Shown: positions 2,463 through 29,167, counted from the stretch's first letter. The stretch: 31,179 bases of DNA from a virus (IMGVR_UViG_2579779052_000007); one strand, 5' to 3'. Notes: generated by a model from the letters alone, not told the origin. Translations and numbers: made by a program.

Positions 2463-3209
2463 ATGAAAAACATTGCGGCAGTTGGGGTTCTTGAACGTAT
2501 TCGCAGACTTGCACCACAGGGGTCGGTTCCACCGTACCGGACGGTGGAGGAGTGGCGGGAATGGCAACTTGCTGAAGGACGAAAACGCAGCGAGGAGATT
2601 AACCGCCAGAATCGCCAGTTGCGGGTGGAAAAAATCCTGAATCGTTCGGGCATCCAGCCTCTGCACAGCAAATGCTCGTTTGCAAATTATCAGGTGCAGA
2701 ACGACGGGCAAAAATACGCGCTGAGCCAGGCCAAATCCATAGCTGACGAACTGATGACCGGGTGCACGAATTTTGTGTTCAGCGGTAAAACCGGCACCGG
2801 GAAAAATCACCTTGCAGCGGCGATGGGCAACCGGCTGATGGTGAAGGGGCGCAGCGTGATTATCGTCACCGTGTCTGACGTCATGAGCGTGTTGCATGAC
2901 AGCTACGACAACGGCAAATCCGGGGAAAAATTTTTACAGGAGCTTTGCGGGGTTGATTTGCTGGTCCTGGATGAAATAGGCGTTCAGCGGGAGACGAAAA
3001 ACGAGCAGGTGGTATTGCACCAGATAATTGATCGCCGGACAGCATCACTGTGCAGTGTCGGGATGTTAACAAACCTGAATCATGCCGCAATGAGTACGCT
3101 TCTTGGTGAGAGGATTATGGACCGCATGACCATGAACGGTGGTCGATGGGTGACGTTTAACTGGGATAGCTGGCGTCCAAATGTCAGCAATATGAGGGTT
3201 GTGAAGTAA
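2463..3209 (+). CDS. DnaC-like replicative helicase loader (IstB-like AAA+ ATPase; lambda P analogue)
   Basis: Walker A GKTGTGKNHLAAA and Walker B LLVLDEIG motifs; start codon 7 nt after the O-like stop; GGGGGTGA RBS. Confidence 0.8.
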   Translation: MKNIAAVGVLERIRRLAPQGSVPPYRTVEEWREWQLAEGRKRSEEINRQNRQLRVEKILNRSGIQPLHSKCSFANYQVQNDGQKYALSQAKSIADELMTGCTNFVFSGKTGTGKNHLAAAMGNRLMVKGRSVIIVTVSDVMSVLHDSYDNGKSGEKFLQELCGVDLLVLDEIGVQRETKNEQVVLHQIIDRRTASLCSVGMLTNLNHAAMSTLLGERIMDRMTMNGGRWVTFNWDSWRPNVSNMRVVK

Positions 3210-3230
3210 TTTTGTCCGGAGGAAATTTTA

Positions 3231-4001
3231 ATGGAAACCGTATCTGACGCACTGAAAGCACTGAAAAAAGCCTCTTCACATGTGGTGGCAGCTCGCCTTG
3301 GAATCAGTCGTGAAGAGGCTGTCAACGAGCTGTGGGAACTCAAAAGAAAAGGCGTCGTTGATAAAACTGGTCACACCTGGTTTCTGGCTGGCGAAGGTGA
3401 ATCCCGGGTAACCGAAGAGCGGCCAGTAAAATCTGAAGCACAGGATATGCTGACCGGGGAGGTCGAACAAAAAGTTACCGCAGACATGATGATTGAGTTT
3501 ATCGGTCAGGATGGGGCTAAAACGTGTGAGGAACTGGCGGGGAAGTTCGGTGTCAGTACTCGCAAGGTTGCTTCCACGCTGGCGGTGGTAACCGCAACGG
3601 GGCGGCTGGCACGCGTTAATCAGAACGGTAAATTTCGTTACTGCATGCCGGGCGATAATTTACCAGCAGAGCCGAAAGCCGCGCTGGTAACGGAAAGTGA
3701 TGGTAAGGCCTTTCCTCAGCCAGCAGGTGCTGCGTTACCAGTCCGGGAAGCCGCAACACAGGAAGAAATTAAAACAGAAACTGTGGCGGACATTGTGCAG
3801 CCGTTGCCATCGTTTACCGAAACGCAAGCAGATGAGCTGATTTTTCCGTCCCTTCGCAGGGCAAACCTGGCGCTGCGCAGGGCGAAAAGTGATGTTCAGA
3901 AGTGGGAGCGAGTCTGCGCCGCGCTGCGGGAGCTGAACAAGCACCGGGATATTGTTCGACAGATTACTGATTCTTCCCGCCGTGTTGTATCGGAAAAGTG
4001 A
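3231..4001 (+). CDS. Hypothetical phage protein
   Basis: 256-aa ORF with a GGAGG RBS in the early operon; no motif recognised. Confidence 0.4.
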   Translation: METVSDALKALKKASSHVVAARLGISREEAVNELWELKRKGVVDKTGHTWFLAGEGESRVTEERPVKSEAQDMLTGEVEQKVTADMMIEFIGQDGAKTCEELAGKFGVSTRKVASTLAVVTATGRLARVNQNGKFRYCMPGDNLPAEPKAALVTESDGKAFPQPAGAALPVREAATQEEIKTETVADIVQPLPSFTETQADELIFPSLRRANLALRRAKSDVQKWERVCAALRELNKHRDIVRQITDSSRRVVSEK

Positions 4002-5282: not shown

Positions 5283-5519
5283 TTTTATGGATCACCTTTC
5301 TGATTGATTTCATATTGGCGAGGTGACGTGAGTTAAGTAGAATGGCTGCGGGTGCTTGAGGCTATCTGTCTCAGGCATGAACACTGAAAGGCAGATAGAG
5401 AAAAGCCCCAGTTAACATTTCGCGTCCTGCAAGACGCTTAACATTAATCTGAGGCCCAATCTATGTCTCACAAATGTAGGTTAGCCTCTTACGTGCCGAA
5501 AGGCAAGGGGAAGCAGGCT

Positions 5520-5675
5520 ATGAAGCAGCAAAAGGCGATGTTAATCGCCCTGATCGTCATCTGTTTAACCGTCATAGTGACGGCACTGGTAACGAGGAAA
5601 GACCTCTGCGAGGTACGACTCCGAACCGGCCAGACGGAGGTCGCTGTCTTCACAGCTTACGAACCTGAGGAGTAA
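5520..5675 (+). CDS. hokD: Hok/Gef-family type I toxin (HokD/RelF-like)
   Basis: 51-aa translation MKQQKAMLIALIVICLTVIVTALVTRKDLCEVRLRTGQTEVAVFTAYEPEE matches the Hok/Gef signature; an in-frame upstream start at 5463 gives a mok-like leader ORF. Confidence 0.75.
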   Translation: MKQQKAMLIALIVICLTVIVTALVTRKDLCEVRLRTGQTEVAVFTAYEPEE

Positions 5676-7172: not shown

Positions 7173-7538
7173 ATGACTGAACGCATAGAATTTGTTTTGC
7201 CTTACCCGCCAACGGTGAACACTTACTGGCGACGTCGTGGCAGCACATATTTTGTATCAAAAGTCGGTGAGCGTTATCGCCGTGATGTGGCGCTTATTGT
7301 TCGCCAGCAGCAACTGAAATTAAACCTGTCCGGAAGGCCGGCAATAGAAATTATTGCAGAGCCACCGGATAAGCGTCGTCGTGACCTGGACAATATCCTG
7401 AAGGCACCACTGGATGTACTGACGCATGCGGGGCTGCTCATAGACGACGAGCAGTTTGATGAAATTAATATTGTGCGCGGTCAGCTTGTTCCTGGTGGGC
7501 GGTTGGGGATAAAAATCACAGAACTGGAGTACGCATGA
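7173..7538 (+). CDS. rusA: Holliday junction resolvase RusA
   Basis: 121 aa with RusA-like motifs (RRRDLDN, catalytic Asp region, GGRL); positioned just before the Q-like gene. Confidence 0.8.
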   Translation: MTERIEFVLPYPPTVNTYWRRRGSTYFVSKVGERYRRDVALIVRQQQLKLNLSGRPAIEIIAEPPDKRRRDLDNILKAPLDVLTHAGLLIDDEQFDEINIVRGQLVPGGRLGIKITELEYA

Positions 7539-8224
7539 ATAACCAGTATTTACAGTTTGTTCGTGAGCAACTCATGATTGCCACCGCCGATTTGAGTGGA
7601 TCAACAAAAGGGCAGCTTGAGGCCTGGCAGGAGAATGCCATGTTTGATACAGGGCGTTACAGGCGTAAAAAAATCCGGTACCGCGATGAAGTGACTGGAA
7701 AAATGATAACGCGGGATAATCCACCAATCCCGGGAAAGCAATCGCTGGCGAAGGGGGTGTCAATTCCTCTCGTCAGTCCGGTTGAGTTTTCGACATCATC
7801 GTGGCGGCGGGCTGTTCTGTCTCTTGAAGAACATCATAAAGCCTGGTTGTTGTGGTGTTACAGCGGGAGTATTTGTTGGGAATATCAGATCGCGATAACG
7901 CAGTGGGTGTGGAATGAATTTAAAACCCGGTACGGCACCAGAAAAATTGCAGGGAAAACGCAGGAGCGCGTGAAGAAGTTGATCTGGCTGGCGGCACAGG
8001 ATGTCAGAGGATGGATTACCGGGTGTGAGGTCTACCAGAGACAGGAGCTTGCCAGACTGTGTGGAGTTAAGCCTGATAACTGGAGCCATAATTATGCGAA
8101 CTACTGGCGTGAGATGTGCGATATTTTTAAGAGTCTCGATAGAGAATCTGTGATTTGCACCGTGAAAATAAGAGCGCAACAAAAAGCGACTTTTTCACGA
8201 CGAGATATTGCAAAAGTCAATTAA
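7535..8224 (+). CDS. Putative late antiterminator Q-like protein
   Basis: 229-aa ORF overlapping the rusA stop (ATGA); position after rusA and before a short terminated leader; not lambda-Q-like by eye, so family unconfirmed. Confidence 0.45.
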   Translation: MNNQYLQFVREQLMIATADLSGSTKGQLEAWQENAMFDTGRYRRKKIRYRDEVTGKMITRDNPPIPGKQSLAKGVSIPLVSPVEFSTSSWRRAVLSLEEHHKAWLLWCYSGSICWEYQIAITQWVWNEFKTRYGTRKIAGKTQERVKKLIWLAAQDVRGWITGCEVYQRQELARLCGVKPDNWSHNYANYWREMCDIFKSLDRESVICTVKIRAQQKATFSRRDIAKVN

Positions 8225-8292
8225 ATAGCGTACGTTTCGTATAAATCTGATATTTTGCCGATTTTGTACGCGATGGCAAAGTAAGAAAAAAA

Positions 8293-8315
8293 CTGCCGTC
8301 AGGCGGTTTTTTTTT
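8293..8315 (+). terminator. Rho-independent terminator about 70 nt after Q (tR'-like)
   Basis: CTGCC-GTCA-GGCGG hairpin followed by T9. Confidence 0.45.
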
Positions 8316-8437
8316 ATGCCCAAAATCGCGTCAGTACAGTAAACACGCTGGTGGTTGCGAATACGGGTCTTTCAGCTTGCTGGCTTTTTCGACAAGAGTT
8401 ATTGGTATGTCACGTTAACCGGAAAAAGGAAAAAGAC

Positions 8438-8785: not shown

Positions 8786-9835
8786 ATGCTTAATACTGTA
8801 AAAATATCCAGTTGTGAGTTAATCAACGCCGACTGCCTGGAATTTATCCGGTCGTTACCCGAAAATTCTGTTGACCTGATAGTCACGGACCCGCCGTACT
8901 TTAAAGTGAAGCCTGAGGGCTGGGATAACCAGTGGAAGGGCGACGATGATTACCTGAAGTGGCTGGACCAGTGTCTGGCGCAGTTCTGGCGGGTGCTGAA
9001 ACCTGTCGGAAGTCTTTACCTGTTCTGTGGTCATCGCCTGGCATCTGATATCGAAATCATGATGCGTGAACGCTTCAGTGTGCTGAACCATATTATCTGG
9101 GCGAAGCCGTCCGGACGCTGGAACGGATGCAACAAGGAAAGCCTGCGGGCGTATTTCCCCGCCACAGAGCGCATTCTGTTCGCGGAACATTATCAGGGGC
9201 CGTATCGTCCGAAAGATGCCGGGTATGCGGCGAAGGGCAGTGCACTGAAACAGCATGTGATGGCCCCGCTGATTTCTTACTTTCGTGATGCGCGCGCTGC
9301 CCTGGGGATAACGGCAAAACAGATTGCAGATGCCACAGGAAAGAAAAACATGGTGTCGCACTGGTTCAGTGCCAGTCAGTGGCAGCTACCGAACGAAAGC
9401 GATTATCTGAAATTACAGTCGCTGTTTGCCCGGGTGGCAGAAGAGAAACATCAGCGCGGTGAACTGGAAAAGCCCCACCACCAGCTGGTGGATACGTATA
9501 CGTCACTGAACCGGCAGTATGTGGAGCTGCAGAGTGAATATAAGCATCTGCGGCGGTATTTTGGTGTGACGGCGCAGGTGCCGTACACGGATGTGTGGAC
9601 ACATAAACCGGTGCAGTTCTATCCCGGGAAACATCCGTGCGAAAAACCGGCAGAAATGCTGCAGCAGATAATCAGCGCAAGCAGTCGTCCGGGTGACCTG
9701 GTTGCAGATTTTTTTATGGGCTCAGGTTCAACGGTAAAAGCGGCACTGGCGCTTGGGCGTCGTGCGATTGGCGTTGAACTGGAGACCGGACGTTTTGAGC
9801 AGACAGTCAGGGAAGTTCAGGATTTAATCGTTTGA
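8786..9835 (+). CDS. Orphan DNA methyltransferase (N6-adenine/N4-cytosine family, DPPY motif)
   Basis: DPPY catalytic motif near the N-terminus (VTDPPYF) and a C-terminal AdoMet-binding-like FFMGSGST; no adjacent restriction endonuclease. Confidence 0.8.
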   Translation: MLNTVKISSCELINADCLEFIRSLPENSVDLIVTDPPYFKVKPEGWDNQWKGDDDYLKWLDQCLAQFWRVLKPVGSLYLFCGHRLASDIEIMMRERFSVLNHIIWAKPSGRWNGCNKESLRAYFPATERILFAEHYQGPYRPKDAGYAAKGSALKQHVMAPLISYFRDARAALGITAKQIADATGKKNMVSHWFSASQWQLPNESDYLKLQSLFARVAEEKHQRGELEKPHHQLVDTYTSLNRQYVELQSEYKHLRRYFGVTAQVPYTDVWTHKPVQFYPGKHPCEKPAEMLQQIISASSRPGDLVADFFMGSGSTVKAALALGRRAIGVELETGRFEQTVREVQDLIV

Positions 9836-9884
9836 AACGGATGAGATTGCAGAATTAATTACGCACCATTATTATTCTGCTCCC

Positions 9885-9960
9885 GGCCCTTTAGCTCAGT
9901 GGTGAGAGCGAGCGACTCATAATCGCCAGGTCGCTGGTTCAAATCCAGCAAGGGCCACCA
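9885..9960 (+). tRNA. ileZ: tRNA-Ile2 (anticodon CAU, lysidine type)
   Basis: 76 nt ending in CCA; anticodon loop CTCATAA; near-identical by eye to the remembered E. coli tRNA-Ile2. Confidence 0.8.
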
Positions 9961-9967
9961 TCACATA

Positions 9968-10044
9968 CCGCCATTAGCTCATCAGGAAAGAGCGCCAGCT
10001 TTCGAAGCTGGTTGCGCGGAGTTCGGGTCCCCGAAGGCGGTCCA
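9968..10044 (+). tRNA. argN: tRNA-Arg (anticodon UCG)
   Basis: 77 nt with CCA; D-arm AGCTCATCAGG...GAGC; anticodon loop TTTCGAA between a CCAGC/GCTGG stem. Confidence 0.65.
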
Positions 10045-10057
10045 TTATCTGTATCCT

Positions 10058-10134
10058 GCGTTGTTAGCTCAGCCGGACAGAGCAATTGCCTTCTAAGCAA
10101 TCGGTCACTGGTTCGAATCCAGTACAACGCGCCA
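10058..10134 (+). tRNA. argO: tRNA-Arg (anticodon UCU)
   Basis: 77 nt with CCA; anticodon loop CTTCTAA; T-loop GGTTCGAATCC; acceptor stem GCGTTGT/ACAACGC. Confidence 0.8.
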
Positions 10135-10149
10135 CACTTATTTTCCCTG

Positions 10150-10172
10150 GCTCGCTTTTGCGGGCTTTTTTT
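10150..10172 (+). terminator. Rho-independent terminator after the tRNA cluster
   Basis: GCTCGC-TTTT-GCGGGC hairpin followed by T7. Confidence 0.5.
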
Positions 10173-10178
10173 AAATGT

Positions 10179-10392
10179 CTCACAATTCAGGCGGTTGACT
10201 GTTGTCTGGTTTGCGGGGAGTTTGTTAAAAGAAACTGGCATGGTGAATCCCCCTGTGCGGAGGGGCAATCAGCGAGTAGGTATATGGGATAATCGCGGAT
10301 TCAGGTGCTGGTACTGAATTCACCGGGAGGCACCCAGCACCATGCAATGGCACATAGCGCCACTCTCCAGCCCCTCTCCGGAGGGGCTTTTC
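10179..10392 (+). ncRNA. Candidate small RNA / late-promoter-terminator unit, copy 1
   Basis: Conserved CTCACAATTCAG box, TTGACT at 10195-10200, flanking inverted repeat GCATGGTG (10238-10245) / CACCATGC (10338-10345), terminator CCCCTC-TCCG-GAGGGG plus T-run at 10371-10392; no convincing ORF. Confidence 0.35.
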
Positions 10393-10646
10393 TGTGCCGG
10401 ATACATCACAGTTTCTGGAACCTTAGGTACTACAGTATCAGTCAGGGTGCTATATTTTCAGATGTGATGAAAGCCTGTCAGCAGGCAGGGCGTATCGGAA
10501 ATGACCCAGTAGAGAAAACGTTGACTCAGATACCGGTGCTGAGTTACCGGGAAACCGGCATCACATGACCGCTATCCTTCCAGGCCCATCCGCTCCGGTG
10601 GGCCTTTTTACTGCAGAAAACAGGTTCCCCGTTAAATGCTATGTTG

Positions 10647-10880
10647 CTCACAATTCAGTAAGTTGACAGTTGCCTGTCAGACTGGGCATTTGTTAAAAAA
10701 ATTTCGCATGGTGAATCCCCCTGAGCGGAGGGGCGACTGGTGACGGTATAATCTCTGATTATCAAAACGAGAATGACGCGGGTTTAGTGGCACCGGGCTG
10801 AACTCACCGGGAGGCACCCGGCACCATGTGCATGATGATACAGATACGCGGCTTTAGCCCCTCTCCGGAGGGGTTTTCTT
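10647..10880 (+). ncRNA. Candidate small RNA / late-promoter-terminator unit, copy 2 (paralogue of 10179-10392)
   Basis: Same architecture: CTCACAATTCAG, TTGACA at 10663-10668, GCATGGTG (10706-10713) / CACCATG (10822-10828), TATAAT at 10747-10752, terminator at 10858-10880. Confidence 0.35.
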
Positions 10881-11108
10881 GTGGGCAAAAAAAGCCCGCG
10901 CTGGGAGACGCGGGCGGCAAGGAATAAACAATAAAACGTGAAGTAATATTTCAGCTGGCGAATAATATCCGACAGTAATCACTCTGCGCAATAGCGCGGC
11001 CTTTTTCGTATTGCGGGCTGTTGTCTCTCTTCTGCCATTGTCCTGTAACTTCCGGACTTCAGCCCGCTCCTCATTTTACTCACAATATTATCCCGGCCGG
11101 GAGGATTC

Positions 11109-12962
11109 ATGGCATTTAAACACTATGATGTTGTCAGGGCGGCGTCGCCGTCAGATCTTGCGGAAAAGCTGACACATAAACTGAAAGAGGGCTGGCAGCC
11201 GTTTGGTAGTCCGGTGGCCATAACCCCTTATACCCTGATGCAGGCGATTGCAGCAGAAGGTGATGTGGTCGTCAGTGGTGCAACTGAGCCGGAGTGGTAC
11301 TACGTCATCGTACTGGCCGGGCAGTCCAATGCCATGGCTTACGGTGAAGGGCTTCCGCTTCCGGATTCATACGATGCGCCCCATCCGCGCATTAAGCAAC
11401 TGGCCCGTCGTAACACAGTGACTCCCGGTGGTGAAGTATGCGTATTTAACGACATCATTCCTGCTGACCATTGTCTGCATGATGTTCAGGATATGAGTAC
11501 GATTAACCATCCCCGGGCTGACCTGAGCAAAGGGCAGTACGGCTGTGTCGGACAGGGCTTACATATTGCCAAAAAACTGCTTCCGTATATCCCTAATAAT
11601 GCGGGGATCCTGCTGGTACCATGCTGTCGTGGTGGTTCGGCATTCACCCAGGGCGCGGAGGGGACATTCAGTGCGGACACGGGGGCCAGCCAGGATTCGG
11701 CACGCTGGGGTGTGGGTAAACCGTTATATCAGGATCTGCTTTTCCGCACGAAGGCAGCATTGCAGAAAAACCCGAAAAACGTTTTGCTGGCGATATGCTG
11801 GATGCAGGGGGAATTCGATATGACGAATGCCAGTTACGCCCAGCAGCCAGCAGCATTTCTTGCAATGGTACAGCAGTTCCGTGCTGACCTTACCGGGCTG
11901 GCGGCGCAGTGCCATGGCGGCAGTGCTGCAGTTGTACCGTGGATTTGTGGCGACACGACGTATTACTGGCAAAACACATACGGCACACAGTATGACTCCG
12001 TCTACGGCGCGTACAAAAACAGGGAGAGCGACAACGTTTTCTTTGTGCCGTTCATGACCGACGGTAACGGCAACAACACGCCCACCAACTTACCGGCAGA
12101 AGACCCGGATATTGCTGATGCAGGTTATTACGGCGCGCAATCCCGTAGTAATGGTAATTGGGTATCGTCAAATCGTCCGACACATTTCAGTTCATGGGCG
12201 CGCAGGGGCATTATTTCGGATCGCCTGGCAACCGCTATTCTGAACGCAGTTGGTCGAACCAGCGCCTTCATCAGCGGTACCGCACCGGAGATTAAACCCT
12301 CGCCCGGCGGCGACACTCCATCGGGGCCGTCTGATGGTGACACATCCGTTCGTACAGTCTCCCTGCTGCCGACAGCCGGAGAGGCTGCTGCGCAGGGCTG
12401 GACCATCACCGGCGGCAGTGTTGCGCTGGAAGATGGTGTGTTTAAGGTTACCAAGCAGAGCAATAAAACCTGGTCCCTGATGCATCCGGTGGATGACGCA
12501 GTCTCCCTGCTGACACGGGGTGGCAGACTGAGCTGTAAGTTTCGACTGTCAGGCGCACTGACCAACAACCAGTTCGGTCTGGGAATTTATCTGTATACCG
12601 ATGTAGCGTTACCTGACGTCGTGGCGATGACCGGGACTGGTAACCCGTTCCTGATGTCGTTCTTCACCCAGACCACAGACGGCAAACTGAATCTGATGCA
12701 TCACAAGAAAGCAGGAAACACAAAGTTGGGCGAGTTCGGGAATTACAGTAACGACTGGCAGACGCTGGAGCTGGTGTTCACCGCCAGCAGTGCCACGGTT
12801 ACTCCGAAACTGAATGGAGTGGCTGGCCCGGCATTCCAGGTCATAAAAGACAGTCTGACACTGGGGCTGAATGCACTGACGCTGACGGATATTACCAAAA
12901 ATGCAACGTATGGCGTTGAGATAGAAAGTCTGGTGCTGGAAATAAATAGTCCTGCAGCGTAA
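11109..12962 (+). CDS. nanS-p: NanS-p-type sialate O-acetylesterase (SGNH/SASA domain with C-terminal carbohydrate-binding-like region)
   Basis: 617 aa; GGAGG RBS; VIVLAGQSNAMAY motif of the SGNH/SASA esterase family; sits downstream of the phage tRNA cluster as the esterase gene does in Stx phages. Confidence 0.75.
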   Translation: MAFKHYDVVRAASPSDLAEKLTHKLKEGWQPFGSPVAITPYTLMQAIAAEGDVVVSGATEPEWYYVIVLAGQSNAMAYGEGLPLPDSYDAPHPRIKQLARRNTVTPGGEVCVFNDIIPADHCLHDVQDMSTINHPRADLSKGQYGCVGQGLHIAKKLLPYIPNNAGILLVPCCRGGSAFTQGAEGTFSADTGASQDSARWGVGKPLYQDLLFRTKAALQKNPKNVLLAICWMQGEFDMTNASYAQQPAAFLAMVQQFRADLTGLAAQCHGGSAAVVPWICGDTTYYWQNTYGTQYDSVYGAYKNRESDNVFFVPFMTDGNGNNTPTNLPAEDPDIADAGYYGAQSRSNGNWVSSNRPTHFSSWARRGIISDRLATAILNAVGRTSAFISGTAPEIKPSPGGDTPSGPSDGDTSVRTVSLLPTAGEAAAQGWTITGGSVALEDGVFKVTKQSNKTWSLMHPVDDAVSLLTRGGRLSCKFRLSGALTNNQFGLGIYLYTDVALPDVVAMTGTGNPFLMSFFTQTTDGKLNLMHHKKAGNTKLGEFGNYSNDWQTLELVFTASSATVTPKLNGVAGPAFQVIKDSLTLGLNALTLTDITKNATYGVEIESLVLEINSPAA

Positions 12963-12985
12963 GGAAGAACAGGAGAGCAAAACAG

Positions 12986-13453
12986 ATGCTTAAGACAAAC
13001 AGCCTCCGGAAGGGCATGATTCATGGGTGTCGCTGGTGTCAGGCCAACCCGGAAAAATTCACCATTTTCGTGGAGAGCGGCAACATTGAAACGACCGGAG
13101 AAACGCCCTCGTTTGTTTACCGCTATCAGATGGTGATGTTTGTCATGGATTACGCCGGGGAGCTGGACGACCTCACGCTGCCGCTACTGGCGTGGTTATC
13201 CGAAAATCAGCCGCAATTGTTGCTTAATCCGGAGCGTAATCAGGACATCAAATTCTCCGCCGTTATCAATGACGATGACAGCGCCGATCTCCTGTTTACG
13301 CTCCCTCTGCGGGAACGCGTTCGCATCACGCGCAGCAGTCAGGGGGCACCGCAGGCAGAACACCTGCAGGAGCCAAAACCCCGTCTGCCATCTTCCGAAG
13401 GCGACTGGTCGCATGTATTCCAGGATGTGACGTGGGGTGAAAGCGATGGATAA
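12986..13453 (+). CDS. R: P2 gpR-like tail completion protein
   Basis: 155 aa, the same length as P2 R, with recognisable similarity (LLAWL.ENQP segment); precedes an S-like gene. Confidence 0.65.
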   Translation: MLKTNSLRKGMIHGCRWCQANPEKFTIFVESGNIETTGETPSFVYRYQMVMFVMDYAGELDDLTLPLLAWLSENQPQLLLNPERNQDIKFSAVINDDDSADLLFTLPLRERVRITRSSQGAPQAEHLQEPKPRLPSSEGDWSHVFQDVTWGESDG

Positions 13454-14081
13454 GGCATTCACCCGCGTGGATGAAACCTTTGAGGCTATCCGCGACAGCC
13501 TGAATCAGCAGGCCATCAATAACATCGCCAGAAAGCTGGCACAGGATTTACGCCGCGCCCAGCAGGCGCGTATCCGGTCACAGAAAGCGCCGGACGGGAC
13601 CGCGTGGACACCACGCAGACGCCGCGTAACCCGGATACAGGAGCGCATTCGCTTTATCTGGAATAACGAAGCACGCACGCTGAAAAACTGGCATCACGAC
13701 ACGGGGAAATACGGGCGAACCATTACCGGGTGGGATGAGGATAAAAACAATATCCGCACGTTTTACCGGGATGACATCGACCGCTTTCTGGAAATACGCA
13801 CCCGGCGCATCAACCAGGACAGCACAAAGCGCGTCCCCATGTTCGTAAAACTGCGCACCGCCCGCTACCTGAAAGCCCGTGCAGATGCTTCCGGTGTGAC
13901 GGTGGGTTACAGCGGCGTGGCCGCACGTATTGCCCGCGTTCATCAGTTCGGTGAGCGCGATCAGGTTGCGCCGGGCATTTTCACCGATTACCCGGTACGT
14001 GAGCTGTTGGGCATCAGTCAGGCAGATGAACGCCTGATTTATAACACGGTGCTGGGCCGGATTGCGGAGGCTGTACGGTGA
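13446..14081 (+). CDS. S: P2 gpS-like tail completion / virion morphogenesis protein
   Basis: Overlaps the R stop and the V start (GTGA); start is either ATG 13446 or GTG 13437. Confidence 0.65.
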   Translation: MDKAFTRVDETFEAIRDSLNQQAINNIARKLAQDLRRAQQARIRSQKAPDGTAWTPRRRRVTRIQERIRFIWNNEARTLKNWHHDTGKYGRTITGWDEDKNNIRTFYRDDIDRFLEIRTRRINQDSTKRVPMFVKLRTARYLKARADASGVTVGYSGVAARIARVHQFGERDQVAPGIFTDYPVRELLGISQADERLIYNTVLGRIAEAVR

Positions 14082-14659
14082 GCGCAGAACTCATGCGACT
14101 GCTGAGCAACATCATCCGCACTGGGATCATCTCTGAAGTTGATGAGAAGTCCTGGTGCGTGCGCGTTCGCAGCGGCGAACTGGAAACAGGCTGGTTGCGC
14201 TGGAACACCACGCGCGCGGGAGCCTTCAATGTGTGGCTGCCGCCATCACCCGGCGAACAGGTGGTAATTGCCTGCATTGGCGGCAACCCGGAAACCGCCA
14301 TGATAATTGGCAGCCTGTGGAGTGATGCCAATCCGGCCCCCGGCAAAAGCCTGAAAGAAATCGTGGTCAGCGCGCCGGATGGCGCGGTGTTCCGCTACGA
14401 CGCGGACGCAGGCGCACTGAGCGCCAGCGGCATGAAAACGGCCACCCTGCAGGCATCCGTCAGTGTGACACTGGACACGCCCGTCGTGGAATGCACAGAC
14501 CTTCTGAGAACGGCGACGCTTGACGTCACAAAAGGGGGAAAGATGAGCGGCAATATCACGCACAGCGGCGGCAATTTCACCTCAAACGGCATCACAGTGC
14601 ATACGCATAAACACGGTGGCGTGAAAGGTGGCAGCGATTCGACAGGAGGCCCGCAGTGA
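14078..14659 (+). CDS. V: Baseplate spike protein, P2 gpV-like
   Basis: GTG start overlapping the S stop; GGAGG RBS; glycine-rich C-terminus typical of gpV spikes. Confidence 0.8.
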   Translation: MSAELMRLLSNIIRTGIISEVDEKSWCVRVRSGELETGWLRWNTTRAGAFNVWLPPSPGEQVVIACIGGNPETAMIIGSLWSDANPAPGKSLKEIVVSAPDGAVFRYDADAGALSASGMKTATLQASVSVTLDTPVVECTDLLRTATLDVTKGGKMSGNITHSGGNFTSNGITVHTHKHGGVKGGSDSTGGPQ

Positions 14660-15006
14660 CAACCCGCTACACAGGAATGAACCCGGACGGAACGGGAAAC
14701 CTGAACGATATGGAGCATCTGAAACAGTCAGTCAGGGACATCCTGACCACCCCGCTGGCAAGCCGGGTTATGCGACGGGAATATGGCAGCCTTGTGCCCG
14801 ATTTAATTGACGAACCCATGAATAACACCACTCGTCTGCAATGCATGAGTGCTGCCGTGATTGCGCTGACACGATGGGAACCCCGCATTGCCCTGGACGC
14901 CATCGACGTTGTCTGGAAGGCAGGAGGCCGCGCCGGGGTGACGCTGTCGGGCACTGTCATGCAGACCATGCAGAATGTTGAATTAACCATCACGCTGAGG
15001 GAGTAA
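14656..15006 (+). CDS. W: Baseplate protein, P2 gpW-like (gp25 family)
   Basis: 116 aa; GTG start overlapping the V stop; AGGAGG RBS; P2 gene order. Confidence 0.8.
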   Translation: MTTRYTGMNPDGTGNLNDMEHLKQSVRDILTTPLASRVMRREYGSLVPDLIDEPMNNTTRLQCMSAAVIALTRWEPRIALDAIDVVWKAGGRAGVTLSGTVMQTMQNVELTITLRE

Positions 15007-15009
15007 ATC

Positions 15010-15906
15010 ATGCCTGCCGTTGACCTTTCCCAGTTACCGGAACCCGCCATCATCGCGGAGCCTGACTTTGAGGCAATTCTGGCTGACACAAAGGCCATGA
15101 TGATTGCGTCCTATCCTGTCGAACAGCGTGAAGCCGTCTCCGCCGCGCTGGAGCTGGAATCGGAACCCCTGAACGTTATCGCCCAGACAACAGCGTTTCG
15201 TGAAATGCTGTTACGCCAGCGGGTCAATGAGGGGGCACGCGCCTGCATGTTAAGCCACAGCGCCGGGACAGACCTGGACAACCTCGCGGGCAATATGAAC
15301 ACAAAGCGCCTGACCATCACTCCGGCAACGGATACCACCGACGCAGTGATGGAAAGTGACACCTCGCTGAGACTGCGGGCGCAGCGGGCGTACGATGGCC
15401 TGAGTGTTGCTGGCCCGTCAGGTGCATACGAGTATTTTGCCCGCAGCGCCAGCGGTCTGGTGCGTGATGCGCGGGCTATCAGTCCGTCTCCGGCAAATGT
15501 GACGGTTTCCATCCTGTCCACTGAAGGCGACGGCACAGCAACGGAGGCGTTGCTTAATACCGTTCGCGCCGTTCTGAATGCAGAGGATACCCGCCCGGTG
15601 GCCGACCGCCTGACGGTACAGAGCGCCAGAATCGTGACATGGCGGCTGAATGCAAAACTGTACTTTTACCCCGGCCCGGAATCCGAACCTATTCTGGCGG
15701 CGGCTGAATCGTCGTTCAGGAAGTGGCTGGCTGAGCAGGGGCTTATCGGTCAGGACGTGGCGTTGTCCGCCATTGCTGCCGCACTGCATGTGCACGGTGT
15801 GCAACGCGTGGAGATAATCGAACCCACACAGAATATGGCCATCAGCGACATACAGGCGGCGCGCTGTGAGTCGTTCACCATCAGCGAAGGTGGGCGCAAT
15901 GAGTAA
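15010..15906 (+). CDS. J: Baseplate assembly protein, P2 gpJ-like
   Basis: 298 aa; RBS GAGGGAG; P2 size and order. Confidence 0.85.
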   Translation: MPAVDLSQLPEPAIIAEPDFEAILADTKAMMIASYPVEQREAVSAALELESEPLNVIAQTTAFREMLLRQRVNEGARACMLSHSAGTDLDNLAGNMNTKRLTITPATDTTDAVMESDTSLRLRAQRAYDGLSVAGPSGAYEYFARSASGLVRDARAISPSPANVTVSILSTEGDGTATEALLNTVRAVLNAEDTRPVADRLTVQSARIVTWRLNAKLYFYPGPESEPILAAAESSFRKWLAEQGLIGQDVALSAIAAALHVHGVQRVEIIEPTQNMAISDIQAARCESFTISEGGRNE

Positions 15907-16429
15907 TTCACTGTTACCACCATCAGCCAGCAGTTTCATGCGTTGTGCCGAAGCTGTCGGAACGCGCATTACAGACATCCCGGTAGACCTCAACACGCTG
16001 TGGTCGCCGGACACCTGCCCGGTGCACCTGCTGCCTTATCTCGCCTGGGCATTTTCCGTTGACCGCTGGGATCGCAACTGGCCGGAAGAGACAAAACGAC
16101 AGGTGATTCGTGATGCATGGCTGATACACCGACACAAAGGGACCATCAGCGCACTGCGCAGGGCCATTGAGCCGCTGGGATACCTCATTCGCGTGTCTGA
16201 GTGGTGGGAGTTCGGCGGAGAACCGGGAACATTTACCGTTGAAGTCGGCACACTGGACAGTGGCGTGACGGAGGAAATGTATCTGGAAATGGAGCGGTTG
16301 ATTGCTGATGCCCGTCCGGTCAGCCGCCACATGACAGGGCTGAATATCATTCAGGAAATTCCGGGGGATATTTTTGCAGCGGCGGCAACTCATGACGGTG
16401 AAGTTATTACCATTTATCCGGACGATTAA
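15899..16429 (+). CDS. I: Baseplate/tail protein, P2 gpI-like
   Basis: 176 aa, the same length as P2 I; start overlaps the J stop (ATGAGTAA). Confidence 0.8.
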
Positions 16430-16431
16430 GC

Positions 16432-18564
16432 ATGAGTACCACAACACGAAAATTTAAAACCGTTATCACCGATACAGGTGCAAAAAAATTAGCTCAGGCA
16501 GCCGCGCCAGATGGTAAGCCTGTCCGCCTGACTCATATGGCCGTGGGCGACGGTGGCGGCGCGTTGCCCACACCAGACAGTAAGCAGACCCGTCTGGTGC
16601 ATGAGGTGTGGCGACACACTGTTAATCGCGTCATCCTGGACGCAACACATCAGAACCGCATTATTGCGGAGCTGGTTATTCCTCCAGAAACGGGCGGATT
16701 CTGGATCCGGGAAATTGGTGTGTTTGATGAGCACGGCGATTTAATCGCGGTGGGCAATACTGCCGAAAGTTACAAGCCAGCCGTTGCCGAAGGGTCCGGA
16801 CGTGCACAAACATTTCGCACCATTCTGACCGTATCCAGCACTGCCACTGTGGCGCTTACCGTGGATAACACCATGGTGATGGCCACAGTGGATTACGTGG
16901 ATAACAAACTGAAAGAGCATGAACAGTCACGATGTCACCCGGATGCCTCGCTGACCGCAAAAGGCTTTGTTCAACTCAGTAGCGCCACTAACAGCGATTC
17001 TGAAACGCTGGCTGCAACGCCGAAAGCGGTTAAGGTCGCGTATGATCTTGCTAACGGAAAATATACAGCGCAGGATGCCACAACAGCGCGAAAAGGCCTT
17101 GTCCAGCTTAGTAGTGCAACCAACAGTACATCTGAAACGCTGGCGGCAACATCAAATGCAGTAAAAGCTGCCTATGACAATGCTGAAAAACGTCTGCAGA
17201 AAGCTAAGAATGGTGAGGATATCTCTGATAAAGACACCTTTACGAAAAATATCGGTGCCTGCCGTGCATATAGTGCAGAGCTGAATATTGGTGGAGATAG
17301 TGAAGCATGGACAACTGCGCAGTTGATTTTTTGGCTAGAGAGTCAGGGGGCATTTAACCATCCTTACTGGATGTGCAAAGGCTCATGGGCTTATGCAAAT
17401 AATAAGGTCATTACAGATACAGGTTGCGGAAGTATTTGTCTTGCAGGTGCTGTTGTGGAAGTTATTGGCACCCGCGGCGCAATGACCATACGCATTACCA
17501 CACCGAGTACATCCAGCGGTGAAGGCATCCCTAATGCTCAATTTACTTATATTAATCATGGTGATGCTTATGCTCCTGGCTGGCGAAGGGACTATAACTC
17601 CAGGAATAAGCCAACAGCATCAGAGATCGGGGCGTTACCGTCAGATGGGACAGCAGTATCGTCAGTTAATCTGGCTTCAAAAGGTCGGCTGACCGCCCTG
17701 ACAGATAATATGCAGGGGGCCACAGGTCTGGAGTTATACGAGGCGTATAACAACGGATATCCAACAACGTATGGAAATATCATTCACCTGAAAGGGATGA
17801 CAGCCGTTGGCGAAGGCGAATTACTCATCGGCTGGAGTGGTATAAGCGGTGCTCATGCTCCGGCATTTATTCGTTCACGACGGGATACGACCGACGCAAA
17901 CTGGTCGCCGTGGGCGCAGCTTTACACCTCGGCTCATCCTCCTGAAGAGTTTTATCCAGTCGGTGCACCGATTCCGTGGCCATCAGATACCGTTCCGTCT
18001 GGTTATGCCCTGATGCAGGGGCAGACTTTTGACAAATCTGCATACCCGAAACTTGCAGTCGCTTATCCGTCAGGCGTTATTCCTGATATGCGTGGCTGGA
18101 CGATTAAGGGCAAGCCCGGCAGTGGTCGTGCCGTATTGTCTCAGGAACAGGACGGCATTAAATCGCACACCCACAGCGCCAGCGCATCCAGTACGGATTT
18201 GGGGACGAAAACCACATCGTCGTTTGATTACGGTACTAAAACGACCAGTTCATTTGATTACGGCACAAAAACTACGAATAGCGCTGGAAATCATTCACAC
18301 AATATACCTGTTGGTCACACTGGCGCGGGGAATGGTGTATCAGCCGGTTATAACGCTGCGTTAGGTACTGGTACCACGTCGAGCGCAGGCGAGCATGCTC
18401 ACAATGTATATATCGGTGCCCATAACCACACTATCGGCATTGGTGCTCATGCCCATTCTGTCATTATTGGTCCCCACGGACACACCATCACCGTTAACGC
18501 TACGGGTAACGAAGAAAACACCGTAAAAAACATCGCATTTAACTATATTGTGAGGCTTGCATAA
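16432..18564 (+). CDS. H: Tail fibre protein, P2 gpH-like
   Basis: 710 aa; conserved gpH-type N-terminus; repeat-rich, histidine-rich C-terminal receptor-binding region. Confidence 0.8.
18201..18282 (+). repeat. Tandem 30-nt coding repeats within the tail fibre gene ([10 protein letters not shown], about 2.7 copies)
   Basis: GGGGACGAAAACCACATCGTCGTTTGATTAC / GGTACTAAAACGACCAGTTCATTTGATTAC / GGCACAAAAACTACGAATAGC. Confidence 0.55.
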
Positions 18565-19142
18565 TGACATTCAGAATGAGTGAACACTCACGGACCATAA
18601 AAATTTATAATCTACTGACCGGAACCAATGAGTTTATTGGTGAAGGTGATGCATACATTCCACCTCATACAGGTCTGCCTGCAAACAGTACCGATATTGC
18701 CCCGCCAGATATTCCGGCTGGCTTCGTGGCCGTTTTCAACAGTGATGAGGCATCGTGGCATCTCGTTGAAGACCATCGGGGTAAAACGGTTTATGACGTG
18801 GCATCAGGGGACTCGTTATTTATTTCTGAACTCGGTCCATTACCGGAAAATGTTACCTGGTTGTCGCCGTATGGAGAGTATCAGAAGTGGAACGGCACAT
18901 CCTGGGTGAAAGATGCAGAAGCAGAAAAACTGTTTCGGATAAGGGAGGCGGAAGAAACAAAAAACAGCCTGATGCAGGTAGCCAGCGAGCATATTGCGCC
19001 ACTTCAGGATGCCGTAGATTTGGATATTGCAACGGAGGAAGAGGCATCGTTACTGGCTGCATGGAAGACATACCGGGTATTGTTGAATCGTGTTAATACA
19101 GCGGTAGCAGCGGATGTTGAGTGGCCAGTCGCCCCACAATAA
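18564..19142 (+). CDS. G: Tail fibre assembly protein, P2 gpG-like
   Basis: 192 aa; start overlaps the H stop (ATAATG); position immediately after the fibre gene. Confidence 0.8.
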
Positions 19143-19185
19143 AGAGAAAAAGCCATCGATTGAAATATAGATGGCTTTATGTACT

Positions 19186-19758
19186 CTATTTATACAATAC
19201 AACACCGCTCTTTTTAGTTATATATGTGCAGTTCGATGGTATATCTTTATTTATAAAAGACATTGCACCTATTTTTACATTATCCCCAATTTTACGTGAT
19301 AATCCAATGATGCAACAATTAGCTCCGATATCAACGTTACTACCAATTTTTACTCTTGAACCAGGCATGTCACCATCTATCTGTCCAATGGTAGTATTCT
19401 GTCGTAACACCAGATTTTCACCAGCATCAACAGCAAAATGAACAACAATTCCAGCATGATGGGGAATTGTTAACCCTTTTCCAATATTTGCGCCCAATCC
19501 AATTTCACAACCAAATTTGTTAATTATTTTACTGTTTAACTTTTTGGCTGCTTTCTTATGTAATTTATTACCATTAATATACATTTCGTTAGCCAACCGC
19601 CACCAGAAAAGGAAATTCCGGTTACGCTGTTTTTTCTCTCTTAAAAGCCTCCAGATATCCATACGTTTCCGCCGAATTACTTCATATTTCCAGAAGTTTT
19701 TTAAATTAGTAGAGTCCCCAAATAAAACAAAGTGAATTGCCATTAAGTAAGACAGCAC
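19186..19758 (-). CDS. Hexapeptide-repeat (left-handed beta-helix) acetyltransferase moron
   Basis: AT-rich gene on the opposite strand; repeated G.N..IG hexapeptide pattern; GTG start at 19758 with AAGGAG RBS preferred over the upstream track ATG. Confidence 0.7.
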   Translation of the reverse strand: MLSYLMAIHFVLFGDSTNLKNFWKYEVIRRKRMDIWRLLREKKQRNRNFLFWWRLANEMYINGNKLHKKAAKKLNSKIINKFGCEIGLGANIGKGLTIPHHAGIVVHFAVDAGENLVLRQNTTIGQIDGDMPGSRVKIGSNVDIGANCCIIGLSRKIGDNVKIGAMSFINKDIPSNCTYITKKSGVVLYK

Positions 19759-19914
19759 GATAATCTCCTTAATTATTATTTCAGACCACACATATTATAA
19801 GGTTAAGAGATTATAAAATCCTGTTGTTTGTTATTCAAAAACAATTTTCTGAGAAGGACATACAACAGCAAGTCGCCAGTCACCTTCATCAGGAAATTGG
19901 CGACATACGTTAAA

Positions 19915-20409
19915 TCAGAGCAGCCCCTTAACTGAGCTGGTCGCGCTATTAAGGGATGATGTCACCTTATCTTTGAAGCCGGACAACATATCGCTGAACG
20001 ATGAGGATTGCAGGCGCTCCCGCAAATCCTCATCACAGCGTTCAAGAGTCAGTGAAAATTCTATCTTTTTCGCCTTACCGTAGCGATCAAACTCGGAGCG
20101 GGTCGTATTCGTTTCGGTCAGGACATACATGCCGTAAATCTGCCCGACGCCATCAATCAGAGGCCAGGGCCGTCCTGTATACGCCTGCGTGGTCAGCAGA
20201 GACAGCGACACTTCGCCACCTGTAATTTCAGGATAAAGCACACCAGAAAGAACGATGCGATCATCACCTGCACCGATATACTGCCAGCTTGCTGAACGGT
20301 TAACGCGTTCATTTTTCACATGCCGCCAGCTTTTGTTTTGCTGTAACTGCTGATGCGGCAGCGTGCGCAGCTCAAAAACAAACATGCCATAGATCATCAT
20401 CATGGCCAT
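19915..20409 (-). CDS. U: Tail protein, P2 gpU-like
   Basis: 164 aa; immediately downstream of the tape-measure gene on the minus strand. Confidence 0.75.
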   Translation of the reverse strand: MAMMMIYGMFVFELRTLPHQQLQQNKSWRHVKNERVNRSASWQYIGAGDDRIVLSGVLYPEITGGEVSLSLLTTQAYTGRPWPLIDGVGQIYGMYVLTETNTTRSEFDRYGKAKKIEFSLTLERCDEDLRERLQSSSFSDMLSGFKDKVTSSLNSATSSVKGLL

Positions 20410-20415
20410 GACTCC

Positions 20416-23259: not shown

Positions 23260-23424
23260 GCCAGCTAACCACTTCGCCGGGCGTCATCATGAAGATTTCG
23301 GCGGGCGACCAGTTAAAAATAACGGCAATATCTGCCACAAAGTCTTCTATGTGCTCAAAGCACACAACCGTGATCAGGCTTCCGTCGCCTGTTCGTTCTT
23401 CCCGCCAGAGTCCGCACCGCTCAA
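23210..23424 (-). CDS. E': E' extension reached by programmed -1 frameshift (gives the E+E' fusion)
   Basis: The -1 frame opens directly after the minus-strand heptamer and continues ERCGLWREERTGDG...WSPAEIFMMTPGEVVSWRERAAL to a stop at 23210-23212. Confidence 0.6.
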
Positions 23425-23739
23425 AAAATTTACGGCAACCACACATAACTGAATAAAGTCACGGGATGCCATTTTTTTGATCGTCACTTCATCCAGTCGC
23501 GGTGATGTCACGCGTGACAGCAACGTAAACATGGATTCCGCTTTCAGATTCAGCACATCAGACAGCGACAAATCTCGCAGAGATCCAGCCTGCTCAATAG
23601 CCCCGGTGATCTCCACATACGTGATTTTTTCGCCGCCTCGCTCAATTGGTTGGGTAAGTTTTACACCACGCTCACTGGTTTCTTTCACAGTGTCAGCAAC
23701 TACCGTGTTTTCGGTATCGATGTTTTTCGTCTCTTTCAT
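23374..23739 (-). CDS. E: Tail assembly chaperone, P2 gpE-like
   Basis: 121-aa ORF between the tube and tape-measure genes; contains the T TTT TTG slippery heptamer near its 3' end. Confidence 0.7.
   Translation of the reverse strand: MKETKNIDTENTVVADTVKETSERGVKLTQPIERGGEKITYVEITGAIEQAGSLRDLSLSDVLNLKAESMFTLLSRVTSPRLDEVTIKKMASRDFIQLCVVAVNFLSGADSGGKNEQATEA
23422..23428 (-). other. Slippery heptamer T TTT TTG for the E/E' -1 frameshift
   Basis: Plus-strand CAAAAAA at 23422-23428; in the E frame the minus strand reads AAT TTT TTG. Confidence 0.6.
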
Positions 23740-23793
23740 CAGGAAACTCCTTTCAGTCAGAGGCGACGCACTGCGCCGCCTGCATATTACTTA

Positions 23794-28837: not shown

Positions 28838-29026
28838 CAGGCAGAATTGCCGGAGTAACAAAAAAACGATAGATTACCCGCGGGTGCCTTTCGGCTGATG
28901 GTCGGAGGAATACCCGAAGGCCGGATGTGGAAAGGCCCCGGAAAACATTTCTGTTTAACCGAGGCCCTAACATATCTACCTTAAGCAAGTGATAGGTTAG
29001 CGCCTCTCCAACAAAGGAGCAAGCGC

Positions 29027-29167
29027 TATGTCGCAAAAATCGCTTACAGCCATCACGTTCTGCGTGACGGTAATCCTCATCATCTGGATGCTACACGGTT
29101 CGCTGTGTGAAATACGGATGAGCTTCTGGGGAGCGGAGTTTGCGGCGTTCTTACAGTGTAAGCAGTA
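29027..29167 (+). CDS. Hok-family type I toxin (HokA-like); below the ORF-track size cutoff
   Basis: 46-aa translation MSQKSLTAITFCVTVILIIWMLHGSLCEIRMSFWGAEFAAFLQCKQ has a single transmembrane helix and the SLCE...AAFL signature; AGGAG RBS 8 nt upstream. Confidence 0.6.

Follow-up and report, generated by a model that had tools for sequence, protein, structure and literature searches.

What lies at the position of the Shiga toxin genes in a lambdoid prophage when those genes are absent? The window considered here, a stretch of viral DNA of 31,179 nucleotides (IMGVR_UViG_2579779052_000007), raises this question through the interval of about 1 kb between its tRNA-Arg(UCU) and esterase genes (10135-11108; Table 1), which the original prediction described as non-coding DNA holding two paralogous units. 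The interval is a cluster of four small RNA (sRNA) genes, three of them STnc100 paralogues on the plus strand and one a gene on the minus strand, and the "non-coding" kilobase at the Shiga toxin gene position is accounted for by known prophage sRNA genes. The finding of sRNA genes is real, yet the family is already known from Rfam and from the EHEC and EPEC literature. Only details are new: for the locus, three tandem copies, a convergent gene and the precise place of the stx insertion; for the family, a pseudoknot, modular tails, tandem arrays and a divergent, sub-threshold B-type copy.

Gene content of the interval

No ORF longer than 109 aa lies within 10135-11108, and the two longest ORFs that overlap it have no Pfam match, in agreement with the prediction that it holds no credible ORF. 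The predicted order of Q, three tRNA genes and an esterase gene is also correct as far as it goes; it omitted the methylase gene and a 94-aa ORF that stand between Q and the tRNAs. ARAGORN and the Rfam tRNA and tmRNA models call only the three true tRNA genes and none among the units. Many E. coli chromosomes carry this kilobase at 98.9-99.8% identity, and among 5426 complete genomes at least 80% of it is found in 353 and a part of it in 2714. A comparison of the 16-nt pattern GCATGGTGAATCCYCC with genome contigs returned nothing beyond chance matches, in unrelated phyla.

Table 1. Coordinates of genes, RNA elements and predicted promoter elements in and around the interval.
Feature	Coordinates	Strand	Remarks
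Q	7535-8224		PF06323, E 1.4e-83
94-aa ORF			between Q and the N6/N4 DNA methylase gene
N6/N4 DNA methylase	8786-9835		absent from the gene order of the original prediction
tRNA(CAU)	9885-9960		tRNA-Ile in the annotation of RefSeq relatives
tRNA-Arg(UCG)	9968-10044
tRNA-Arg(UCU)	10058-10134
Intrinsic terminator closing the tRNA-Ile2/Arg/Arg cluster	10149-10175	+	stem 10149-10166, then T7
Unit A promoter region	10179-10237	+	predicted from conservation
Unit A, CTCACAATTCAG box	10179-10190		positions -59 to -48
Unit A, TTGACT	10195-10200
Unit A, predicted -35 TTGTCT	10202-10207		17-bp spacer to -10
Unit A, predicted -10 TTAAAA	10225-10230
STnc100-family sRNA gene A	10238-10393	+	RF02076; R1 100.5 bits
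Gene A, 5' domain	10238-10345
Gene A, A-type tail	10346-10368
Gene A, terminator stem	10369-10388		then UUUU
Unit B, putative extended -10 TGcTATATT	10448-10456	+	read from sequence
Divergent STnc100-family gene B	10462-10610	+
Gene B, 5' domain	10462-10566
Gene B, terminator stem	10582-10605		then UUUUU
Unit C promoter region	10647-10705	+	predicted
Unit C, CTCACAATTCAG box	10647-10658
Unit C, TTGACA	10663-10668
Unit C, predicted -35 TTGCCT	10670-10675		17-bp spacer to -10
Unit C, predicted -10 TTAAAA	10693-10698
STnc100-family sRNA gene C	10706-10880	+	RF02076; R1 102.5 bits
Gene C, 5' domain	10706-10829
Gene C, C-type tail	10830-10855
Gene C, terminator stem	10856-10875
EcOnc08/21/42-type sRNA gene	10887-11080	-	convergent with unit C; 5' end at about 11068 by homology
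Minus-strand gene, terminator	10915-10894	-	then U7 (10893-10887)
Minus-strand gene, seed-like CCUUGCC	10922-10916	-
Minus-strand gene, candidate -10 TAAAAT	11078-11073	-
Minus-strand gene, candidate -10 GATAAT	11092-11087	-
Hairpin, then CCUUUUUCG	10984-11005	+	homologous to the PasD-type tail terminator (aligned with PasD2)
SASA/DUF1737/DUF6645 esterase, 617 aa	11109-12962

Three tandem STnc100 paralogues

The two units first recognized, here A and C, are indeed paralogous, each with a CTCACAATTCAG box and an intrinsic terminator. An 88-nt block (10179-10266 versus 10647-10734) is 80% identical between them and a 31-nt block (10314-10344 versus 10798-10828) 94% identical; overall identity is about 70% over 238 aligned bases. 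A covariance-model search against Rfam, proposed as a check on the original prediction, was run with cmscan on Rfam 15 and gave full-length matches (model positions 1-206) to RF02076, STnc100, at 10209-10399 (unit A, 128.9 bits) and 10677-10886 (unit C, 161 bits). Both scores lie far above the gathering score of 47 bits. Units A and C belong to STnc100, and the idea that they are sRNA genes like the Hfq-binding prophage sRNAs of pathogenic E. coli is borne out. Their location fits this family as well: they lie in the late-leader region between Q and the tRNAs on one side and the esterase gene on the other, co-oriented with the late operon, and their relatives are likewise found in late leaders, between Q, tRNAs or stx and the esterase or lysis genes, in late-operon orientation.

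The minimum free energy (MFE) fold of unit A reproduces P1, P2, P4 and the terminator, and A10336 forms a C.A mismatch that breaks a P5 C-G pair conserved in relatives. The MFE fold of unit C pairs the 3' strand of P2 with the 5' strand of the terminator. Single-sequence folding is not better than that of shuffled sequences (z -1.2 for A, -1.0 for C) and is no evidence when taken alone; the structural case therefore rests on covariation.

The count of two units was too low. Between A and C lies a divergent third member, unit B, and the hairpin at about 10584-10612 that had been read as a separator is real but is the terminator of this copy, making three tandem members. The full RF02076 model scores 30.1 bits on 10438-10611 (E 4e-5 when that stretch alone is searched), which leaves unit B by itself below the gathering score of 47 bits. 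R1, a covariance model of the 5' domain alone that was built in this analysis, matches it at 10462-10566 with 29.9 bits (E 1e-4). All helices of unit B are kept by compensatory change of the two strands: P1 reads AUGUGAUG/CAUCACAU against CAUGGUG/CACCAUG in the family consensus, P2 is CUGUC/GGCAG, P4 is GACUCAG/CUGAGUU and P5 is CCGG-GAAA-CCGG. A pseudoknot described below is retained as GUAUCGG/CCGGUGC. The MFE fold reproduces the helices (z -2.63), and the conserved loop sequences are lost. Among the 5426 complete E. coli genomes, 673 carry unit B, which comes in two alleles. The second, found in locus L247 and in phage vB_EcoS-640R1, carries the entire A-B-C triple at 85-90% identity; in L247 and L248 homology to the window starts just upstream of the putative extended -10 element of unit B. 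Current Rfam-based annotation misses this subfamily.

A convergent gene on the minus strand

Judged by homology, the minus strand carries a fourth, known sRNA gene: positions 11068-10887, read on that strand, are about 98% identical to the EPEC RIL-seq sRNA "E2348C_1409.E2348C_1408.IGR" (NC_011601 1444797-1444978), with few mismatches over about 190 nt, terminator and seed included. Beyond these mismatches no difference was detected in sequence, and by homology the gene would be expressed here as well. Its CCUUGC motif is complementary to GGCAAGG, the RIL-seq target motif of the EPEC sRNA. The EHEC homologues of this sRNA are EcOnc08/21/42, and it is Hfq-associated in EPEC and EHEC. In EPEC, too, it is convergent with an STnc100-type copy (L246 831-943, 54.8 bits). 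The palindrome at 10984-11005 is, on the minus strand, internal to the EcOnc08/21/42-type sRNA.

The stx2AB insertion point

The terminator of the tRNA cluster is kept in the Stx2a phage L003 (2638-2664), just ahead of the stx2A leader, and forms the left border of the "stx slot". Window positions 9800-10176, comprising the tRNAs and this terminator, align to L003 2288-2665; stx2A (2715-3674) and stx2B (3686-3955) follow in that phage. Homology resumes exactly at the unit C box (window 10648 = L003 4001), and 10648-11216 aligns to L003 4001-4560 at 87%. Phage VT2-Sakai has the same layout, and in both phages the STnc100 copy lies 46-75 nt after stx2B. Because the homology of the window ends at the tRNA terminator and resumes at the unit C box, stx2AB is inserted exactly between that terminator and the box that opens the single STnc100 unit. 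Unit C, by its alignment, is the orthologue of the STnc100 copy downstream of stx2B in Stx2 phages. Since those phages have stx2AB between the tRNA terminator and a single unit, only A and B occupy the "stx slot", whose equivalent here is 471 bp long (10177-10647). The predicted stx-equivalent slot thus shrinks to these 471 bp; unit C, which had been included in it, is the resident copy. Phage phi296, which lacks stx, carries just one unit. In relatives without stx, the slot of stx2AB is filled by extra sRNA paralogues.

Promoters and terminators

Terminator-like hairpins are dense around the cluster, with 10 sites in 1.5 kb versus 1.7 expected, among them the stems of the three units, of the tRNA cluster and of the minus-strand gene (Table 1) and a hairpin at 10984-10999. 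Units A and C end in short U-tracts with an interruption (UUUUC), which are poor for both termination and Hfq binding.

The CTCACAATTCAG box occurs exactly twice in the window (10179 and 10647), versus 0.09 occurrences expected by chance. The TTGACA-like hexamer noted in the original prediction is present as described, but lies 24 bp rather than 17 bp from the -10 TTAAAA; properly spaced candidates (TTGTCT in A, TTGCCT in C) are found 7 bp downstream of it. The CTCACAATTCAG box, TTGAY, TTG(T/C)CTG and TTTGTTAAAA, followed by 7 nt to GCAUGG, are shared by about 50 distinct relatives of A and C. A promoter scanner returned no plus-strand sigma-70 site at its thresholds, and the promoters were therefore deduced from conserved elements together with the 5' end reported for PasD. 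Specifically, homology to the 5' end given for PasD2 (L005 3158) sets the predicted +1 positions of A and C, the published EPEC 5' ends being coverage-based estimates and not TSS mapping. The estimated PasD2 5' end is the G of GCAUGGUG, and upstream of it stands TTGACT-17-TTAAAA-8.

Klebsiella and HK639-type relatives have a second promoter class, TTGACC-17-TAACTT, whose +1 is likewise at P1. Across unrelated promoter classes the -10 hexamer always lies 5-8 nt before P1, and the candidate extended -10 of unit B lies 5-6 nt ahead of the first P1 base. Because this conserved geometry between -10 and P1 arises from unrelated promoter sequences, it speaks for units that are transcribed independently. 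Reading the CTCACAATTCAG box as the right half of a class I CRP site is speculative: TCACA occupies -58 to -54, and AAATGTTA-N6-TCACAATT is found in some relatives; in the window only three of the five bases of the left half-site match.

A conserved 5' domain with exchangeable tails

A 21-mer taken from P5/P1 found 120 loci in IMG/VR, and a search with R1 gave 126 copies (78 distinct), some of which lack the 21-mer. R1 finds A, B and C at their predicted P1-to-P1 borders, and its match to PasD2 (L005 3158-3256) starts exactly at the published 5' end. In an alignment of the 78 distinct relatives that is fitted to the model and leans towards the structure, 95.0% of cells in the nested helices are paired, versus 39-51% with slid partners; 16 of 26 pairs change on both sides, and the covariation score is 0.335, versus at most 0.087 in slid controls.

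Across 38 sequence classes, the P4 loop is complementary to the segment immediately 3' of P2, with a mean longest helix of 7.05 bp versus 4.75 +/- 0.20 bp when loops are permuted among classes; none of 5000 permutations reached the observed value. The permutation test was used in place of column-wise counts on MAFFT and CM alignments, which were dropped owing to the two strands being out of register. Among the pairs are AUCAGC/GCUGGU in A, CUGGUG/CACCGG in C, AAUGAUC/GAUCAUU in PasD, and AGACUGACA/UGUCAGUCU. The STnc100-family 5' domain thus has an H-type pseudoknot supported by covariation. It is absent from the Rfam structure, and the word was not found in the Pas preprint (bioRxiv 10.64898/2026.05.13.724894). 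One subfamily has a nested P3 and a simple P4 in place of the pseudoknot.

The tails 3' of P1 are unrelated between copies and fall into at least eight types, every type ending in a terminator of its own; no two of A, B and C share a tail. The family is modular, a conserved 5' domain of about 110 nt being joined to swappable 3' tails. Tandem arrays occur elsewhere: L130 has four copies, L159 has five, and L198 has two that lie 275 nt apart. Every copy seen runs in the direction of the late operon. Two segments of the 5' domain, GGUGAAUC and CACCGGGAGGCACCCGGCACC, are near-invariant. The domain is far more elaborate than protection of a 5' end requires. A tRNA-like reading of the P1/P5 stack was discarded, having no ARAGORN or Rfam support; the coaxial topology is a resemblance only.

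Function of the cluster

The cluster is probably carried as cargo by a lambdoid prophage, in its late-leader region: a set of sRNA genes expressed in the lysogen and acting in trans. A sigma-70 promoter would set the +1 of each plus-strand unit at the first base of P1. The RNA would begin with a compact 5' domain of about 105-125 nt (P1, P2, P4 and P5, with P5 stacked directly on P1), in which the pseudoknot would join the stretch after P2 to the P4 loop. A tail of 15-30 nt, largely unpaired and different in A, B and C, would follow, with an intrinsic terminator ending each unit; the minus-strand gene (from about 11068 to 10887) converges on unit C. By homology, the RNAs would be made in the uninduced lysogen as stable species of 150-180 nt. 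Tail and terminator may together form a chaperone-binding and base-pairing module that acts in trans, so that three different tails would give three different target sets, and the conserved 5' domain would be a shared chassis, with stability or partner binding as candidate roles.

The analysis itself establishes family membership, the conservation of the structure, synteny and the place of the stx insertion. What is expected here of the transcription, size and Hfq association of A-C is taken from the literature on their relatives; promoters, 5' ends and trans-acting targets are predictions for these particular copies. EDL933 has 11 STnc100 copies, all transcribed in the lysogen, one of which, STnc100_4, is Northern-positive (PMC5331693). 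EcOnc27/sRNA103, encoded just after stx2B in EHEC O157:H7, binds Hfq, and espA and fimZ transcripts rise when it is overexpressed (PMC12711010); this copy is also found in outer-membrane vesicles of STEC (PMC12370729). PasD1 and PasD2 of EPEC are RNAs of about 172 nt, verified by Northern blot and backed by RIL-seq (PMC8550237), the chimeras of which lie in the last 50 nt or so, in the tail (PMC8550237 and supplements). PasD levels do not drop in an hfq mutant (log2FC +0.55 and -0.18; PMC8550237 Table S2), and the Hfq dependence of the family is therefore weaker than that of typical sRNAs.

Along with this PasD result, the short U-tracts of A and C and the elaborate 5' domain speak against a purely classical Hfq sRNA. 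The P5-breaking base of unit A, the lost loop sequences and sub-threshold score of unit B and the empty result of the promoter scanner likewise weigh against the sRNA reading. A compact, pseudoknotted domain of 110 nt is unusual in a base-pairing sRNA, which suggests an additional or different function. It is unlikely that the 5' domain is a functional module in its own right and more than a stabilising chassis, binding some partner of host or phage origin (a protein, the ribosome, RNA polymerase or a small molecule, for instance), with arrays of two to five copies coupling that activity to different targets. If so, GGUGAAUC, CACCGGGAGGCACCCGGCACC and the stack of P5 on P1 would let the domain bind a specific partner.

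The excess of terminator-like hairpins invites a cis explanation, in which the five plus-strand terminators that separate the tRNA genes from the esterase and late genes stop early and tRNA read-through in the lysogen, Q-modified polymerase passes them after induction, and the RNAs are by-products. HK639, which has four annotated terminators between Q and its lysis genes, one of them in a family member, fits this view, as does the shared orientation of all copies with the late operon. As the whole explanation it is nonetheless quite improbable: a barrier needs neither a covarying, pseudoknotted 110-nt domain nor a promoter placed exactly at P1, and relatives are abundant and form Hfq-dependent chimeras with mRNAs (PMC8550237). 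A barrier is plausible as a secondary role, compatible with the sRNA explanation.

A riboswitch- or put-like 5' domain, acting as a sensor or as an RNA that binds a protein, the ribosome or polymerase, whose ligand state would set its own termination and read-through into nanS-p or the lysis genes, with the sRNA-like species as the "off" product, is very unlikely. A conserved, aptamer-like domain followed by a variable terminator, the complexity of the fold with its pseudoknot, the P2-terminator pairing in the MFE fold of unit C and the independence of PasD abundance from Hfq are all in its favour. Domain and terminator, however, do not covary: P2 stays CCCCU/AGGGG while terminators are swapped, and the subfamily with a CUUUC/GAAAG P2 has an unrelated terminator. 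An antiterminator logic was rejected on similar grounds, the P2/terminator similarity of A- and C-type tails failing to covary across tails. The downstream genes also vary (the esterase, iraM on the other strand, a holin or another unit), a convergent gene and terminator often follow the unit, and the riboswitch and ribozyme families of Rfam give no match at E <= 1. With terminators swapped without compensating change in the domain and with varying downstream genes, a riboswitch-like role is unsupported.

StxS-type sRNAs arise from PR'/tR' promoter-terminator modules in Stx phages, and units that each combine a promoter with a terminator in the late region had also been proposed to be duplicated late-promoter leader modules, which would be of this or the lambda 6S type. 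This is hardly credible here. A PR'/tR'-like pair is already present at its expected place directly after Q (TATAAA 8240-8245, terminator 8293-8316); the units are unrelated to it, lie 2 kb downstream, past the methylase gene and three tRNA genes, and match a different RNA family, STnc100. Copies moreover adjoin unrelated Q types (PF06323 here, a 273-aa "antitermination protein" in L001 and L002, a 165-aa Q in HK639), a diversity that disfavours a Q-specific binding element. Finally, remnants of a decayed protein-coding gene deserve next to no credence even though RefSeq and PHANOTATE annotate small "hypothetical protein" fragments here, given that the ORFs have no Pfam match, that substitutions are compensatory in the pattern of base-paired RNA rather than of codons, and that the annotated fragments, flagged partial, are on the other strand.

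Relation to known RNAs

Among known RNAs, STnc100/EcOnc27 resembles A and C in position (from the tRNA/stx region to nanS-p), orientation, promoter box and terminator type, and the copy in Stx2a phages aligns with unit C at 87%. The Stx phages examined differ in having one STnc100 copy, where the window has three in tandem, and the tail of unit C, UGCAUGAUGAUACAGAUACGCGGCUUU, is unlike the tails of the Stx2 copies examined.

PasD1 and PasD2 of EPEC E2348/69 occupy the same slot, PasD2 directly upstream of the 617-aa esterase gene. PasD RNA begins at GCAUGGUG and shares P1, P2, P4 and the pseudoknot (AAUGAUC/GAUCAUU) with the units, and a homologue of its terminator lies at window 10984-11005. 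In contrast to the units, PasD has a shortened P5, a canonical TTGACT-17-TTAAAA promoter with no CTCACAATTCAG box, and the seed CCUUGUGAG within a long U-rich tail, and it scores only 34-41 bits. A common ancestor of PasD and STnc100 has been proposed, and the Pas copies are described as not being tandem duplicates (bioRxiv 10.64898/2026.05.13.724894).

StxS, lambda 6S RNA and the put RNAs of HK022 and HK639 are also short structured RNAs from lambdoid regulatory leaders; they differ from the units in location and sequence and have no Rfam or sequence relation to them. The matching segment of HK639 lies in its late leader and is annotated only as "terminator", hence it is not a put site. The pairs OmrA/OmrB and PrrF1/PrrF2 and the set Qrr1-5 are likewise adjacent paralogues, in part shared and in part different, an arrangement that would allow overlapping but distinct regulons. 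In the STnc100 cluster, by contrast, the copies have a large structured 5' domain in common and differ in the 3' tail, and the genes are phage cargo that recombines as modules. Tandem arrays with a shared domain and exchangeable tails would offer a simple recombination route to diversified regulons.

Putative promoter region and 5' end of the STnc100 copies

The Rfam STnc100 model starts some 29 nt before the 5' end predicted by homology to the EPEC PasD RNAs, placing the -10 region inside the model; model positions 1-29 correspond to 10209-10237 in unit A and 10677-10705 in unit C, both STnc100-family sRNA genes. An 11-nt complementarity to stxB has been proposed at "positions 5-15 of STnc100" (PMC12370729), but, given this model offset and the PasD-inferred 5' end, the complementary stretch would correspond to untranscribed promoter DNA. 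Two HUS-associated polymorphisms have been reported 90 and 103 bp after stx2B (PMC12711010). Our own coordinate conversion puts these sites at 4040-4058 in L003 and 540-558 in L250, both Stx2a phages, a few bases at most from the inferred -10 hexamer (TTAAAA) and the -10/+1 spacer of the Stx2a STnc100 copy, and so would assign them to the putative promoter of that copy rather than to the RNA.

Further upstream, units A and C carry TCACA at -58 to -54, the position expected for the right half of a class I CRP site, and AAATGTTA-N6-TCACAATT can be read in some relatives. A third CTCACAAT motif is present within the promoter region that serves the minus-strand sRNA, a short distance upstream of nanS-p. 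Within the conserved 5' domain of unit A, position 10336 is A, as opposed to G in nearly all relatives, converting the conserved C-G pair of helix P5 to C.A. The copy in ATCC 11775 has G at this position and scores 136 bits, compared with 129 bits in the window.

The candidate late promoter and tR' that follow Q would give a 6S/StxS-like transcript of about 60 nt. Read on the minus strand, the tR' hairpin gives a sub-threshold match to STnc370 (42 bits against a gathering score of 54).

Coordinates of additional features in the window
Feature	Position	Content	Location
sok antitoxin RNA	5350-5525		adjoins hokD-type locus
Candidate late promoter and tR'	8240-8316	TATAAA, then hairpin CTGCCGTCAGGCGG + T9	directly after Q
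CTCACAAT motif, three occurrences	10179-10190, 10647-10658, 11076-11086		
P2-type tail genes	12986-25490	gpR (PF06891), gpS, gpV spike, tail fibre	downstream of esterase
IS009	18907-19105	full-length Rfam match	P2-like tail-fibre region
sok-like match	28882-29038		near tRNA-Leu/Cys/Gly end of window

Family members elsewhere

A divergent STnc100-type 5' domain directly adjoins DicF in the immunity region of the ATCC 11775 prophage (L001 84-209, minus strand), scoring 46 bits with R1, our covariance model of the 5' domain, and 37.7 bits with the Rfam model. Compensatory changes preserve its P5 (CCUGG/CCAGG), and it forms a pseudoknot of its own (CAGUUAA/UUAACUG). Given this location, the domain is not restricted to the late leader. 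Tandem arrays of four members (L130 2326-3350, minus strand) and five members (L159 4380-5460) on IMG/VR contigs, with neighbouring members approximately 250-460 nt apart, are larger versions of the A-B-C arrangement in the window. Phage HK639 encodes a member with P2 CUUUC/GAAAG at 44811-44922 (L249 4036-4147), in the late leader between Q and the lysis genes, where the only annotated features are labelled "terminator"; related copies occur in Klebsiella phages.

Prophage context

The P2-type tail genes begin 23 bp past the esterase stop codon (12962-12986), and the 31-kb window lacks a lysis cassette as well as genes for terminase and head proteins; because of this combination, the prophage is hybrid or degraded. 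The esterase/tail junction is 100% identical across many genomes, for example O103 STEC RM8385, and at least 80% of its sequence is present in 375 genomes. The IS009 match scores 192 bits against a gathering score of 117. Of two sok-type matches, the one in the lambdoid early region scores 120.5 bits and the second is sub-threshold at 46.7 bits.
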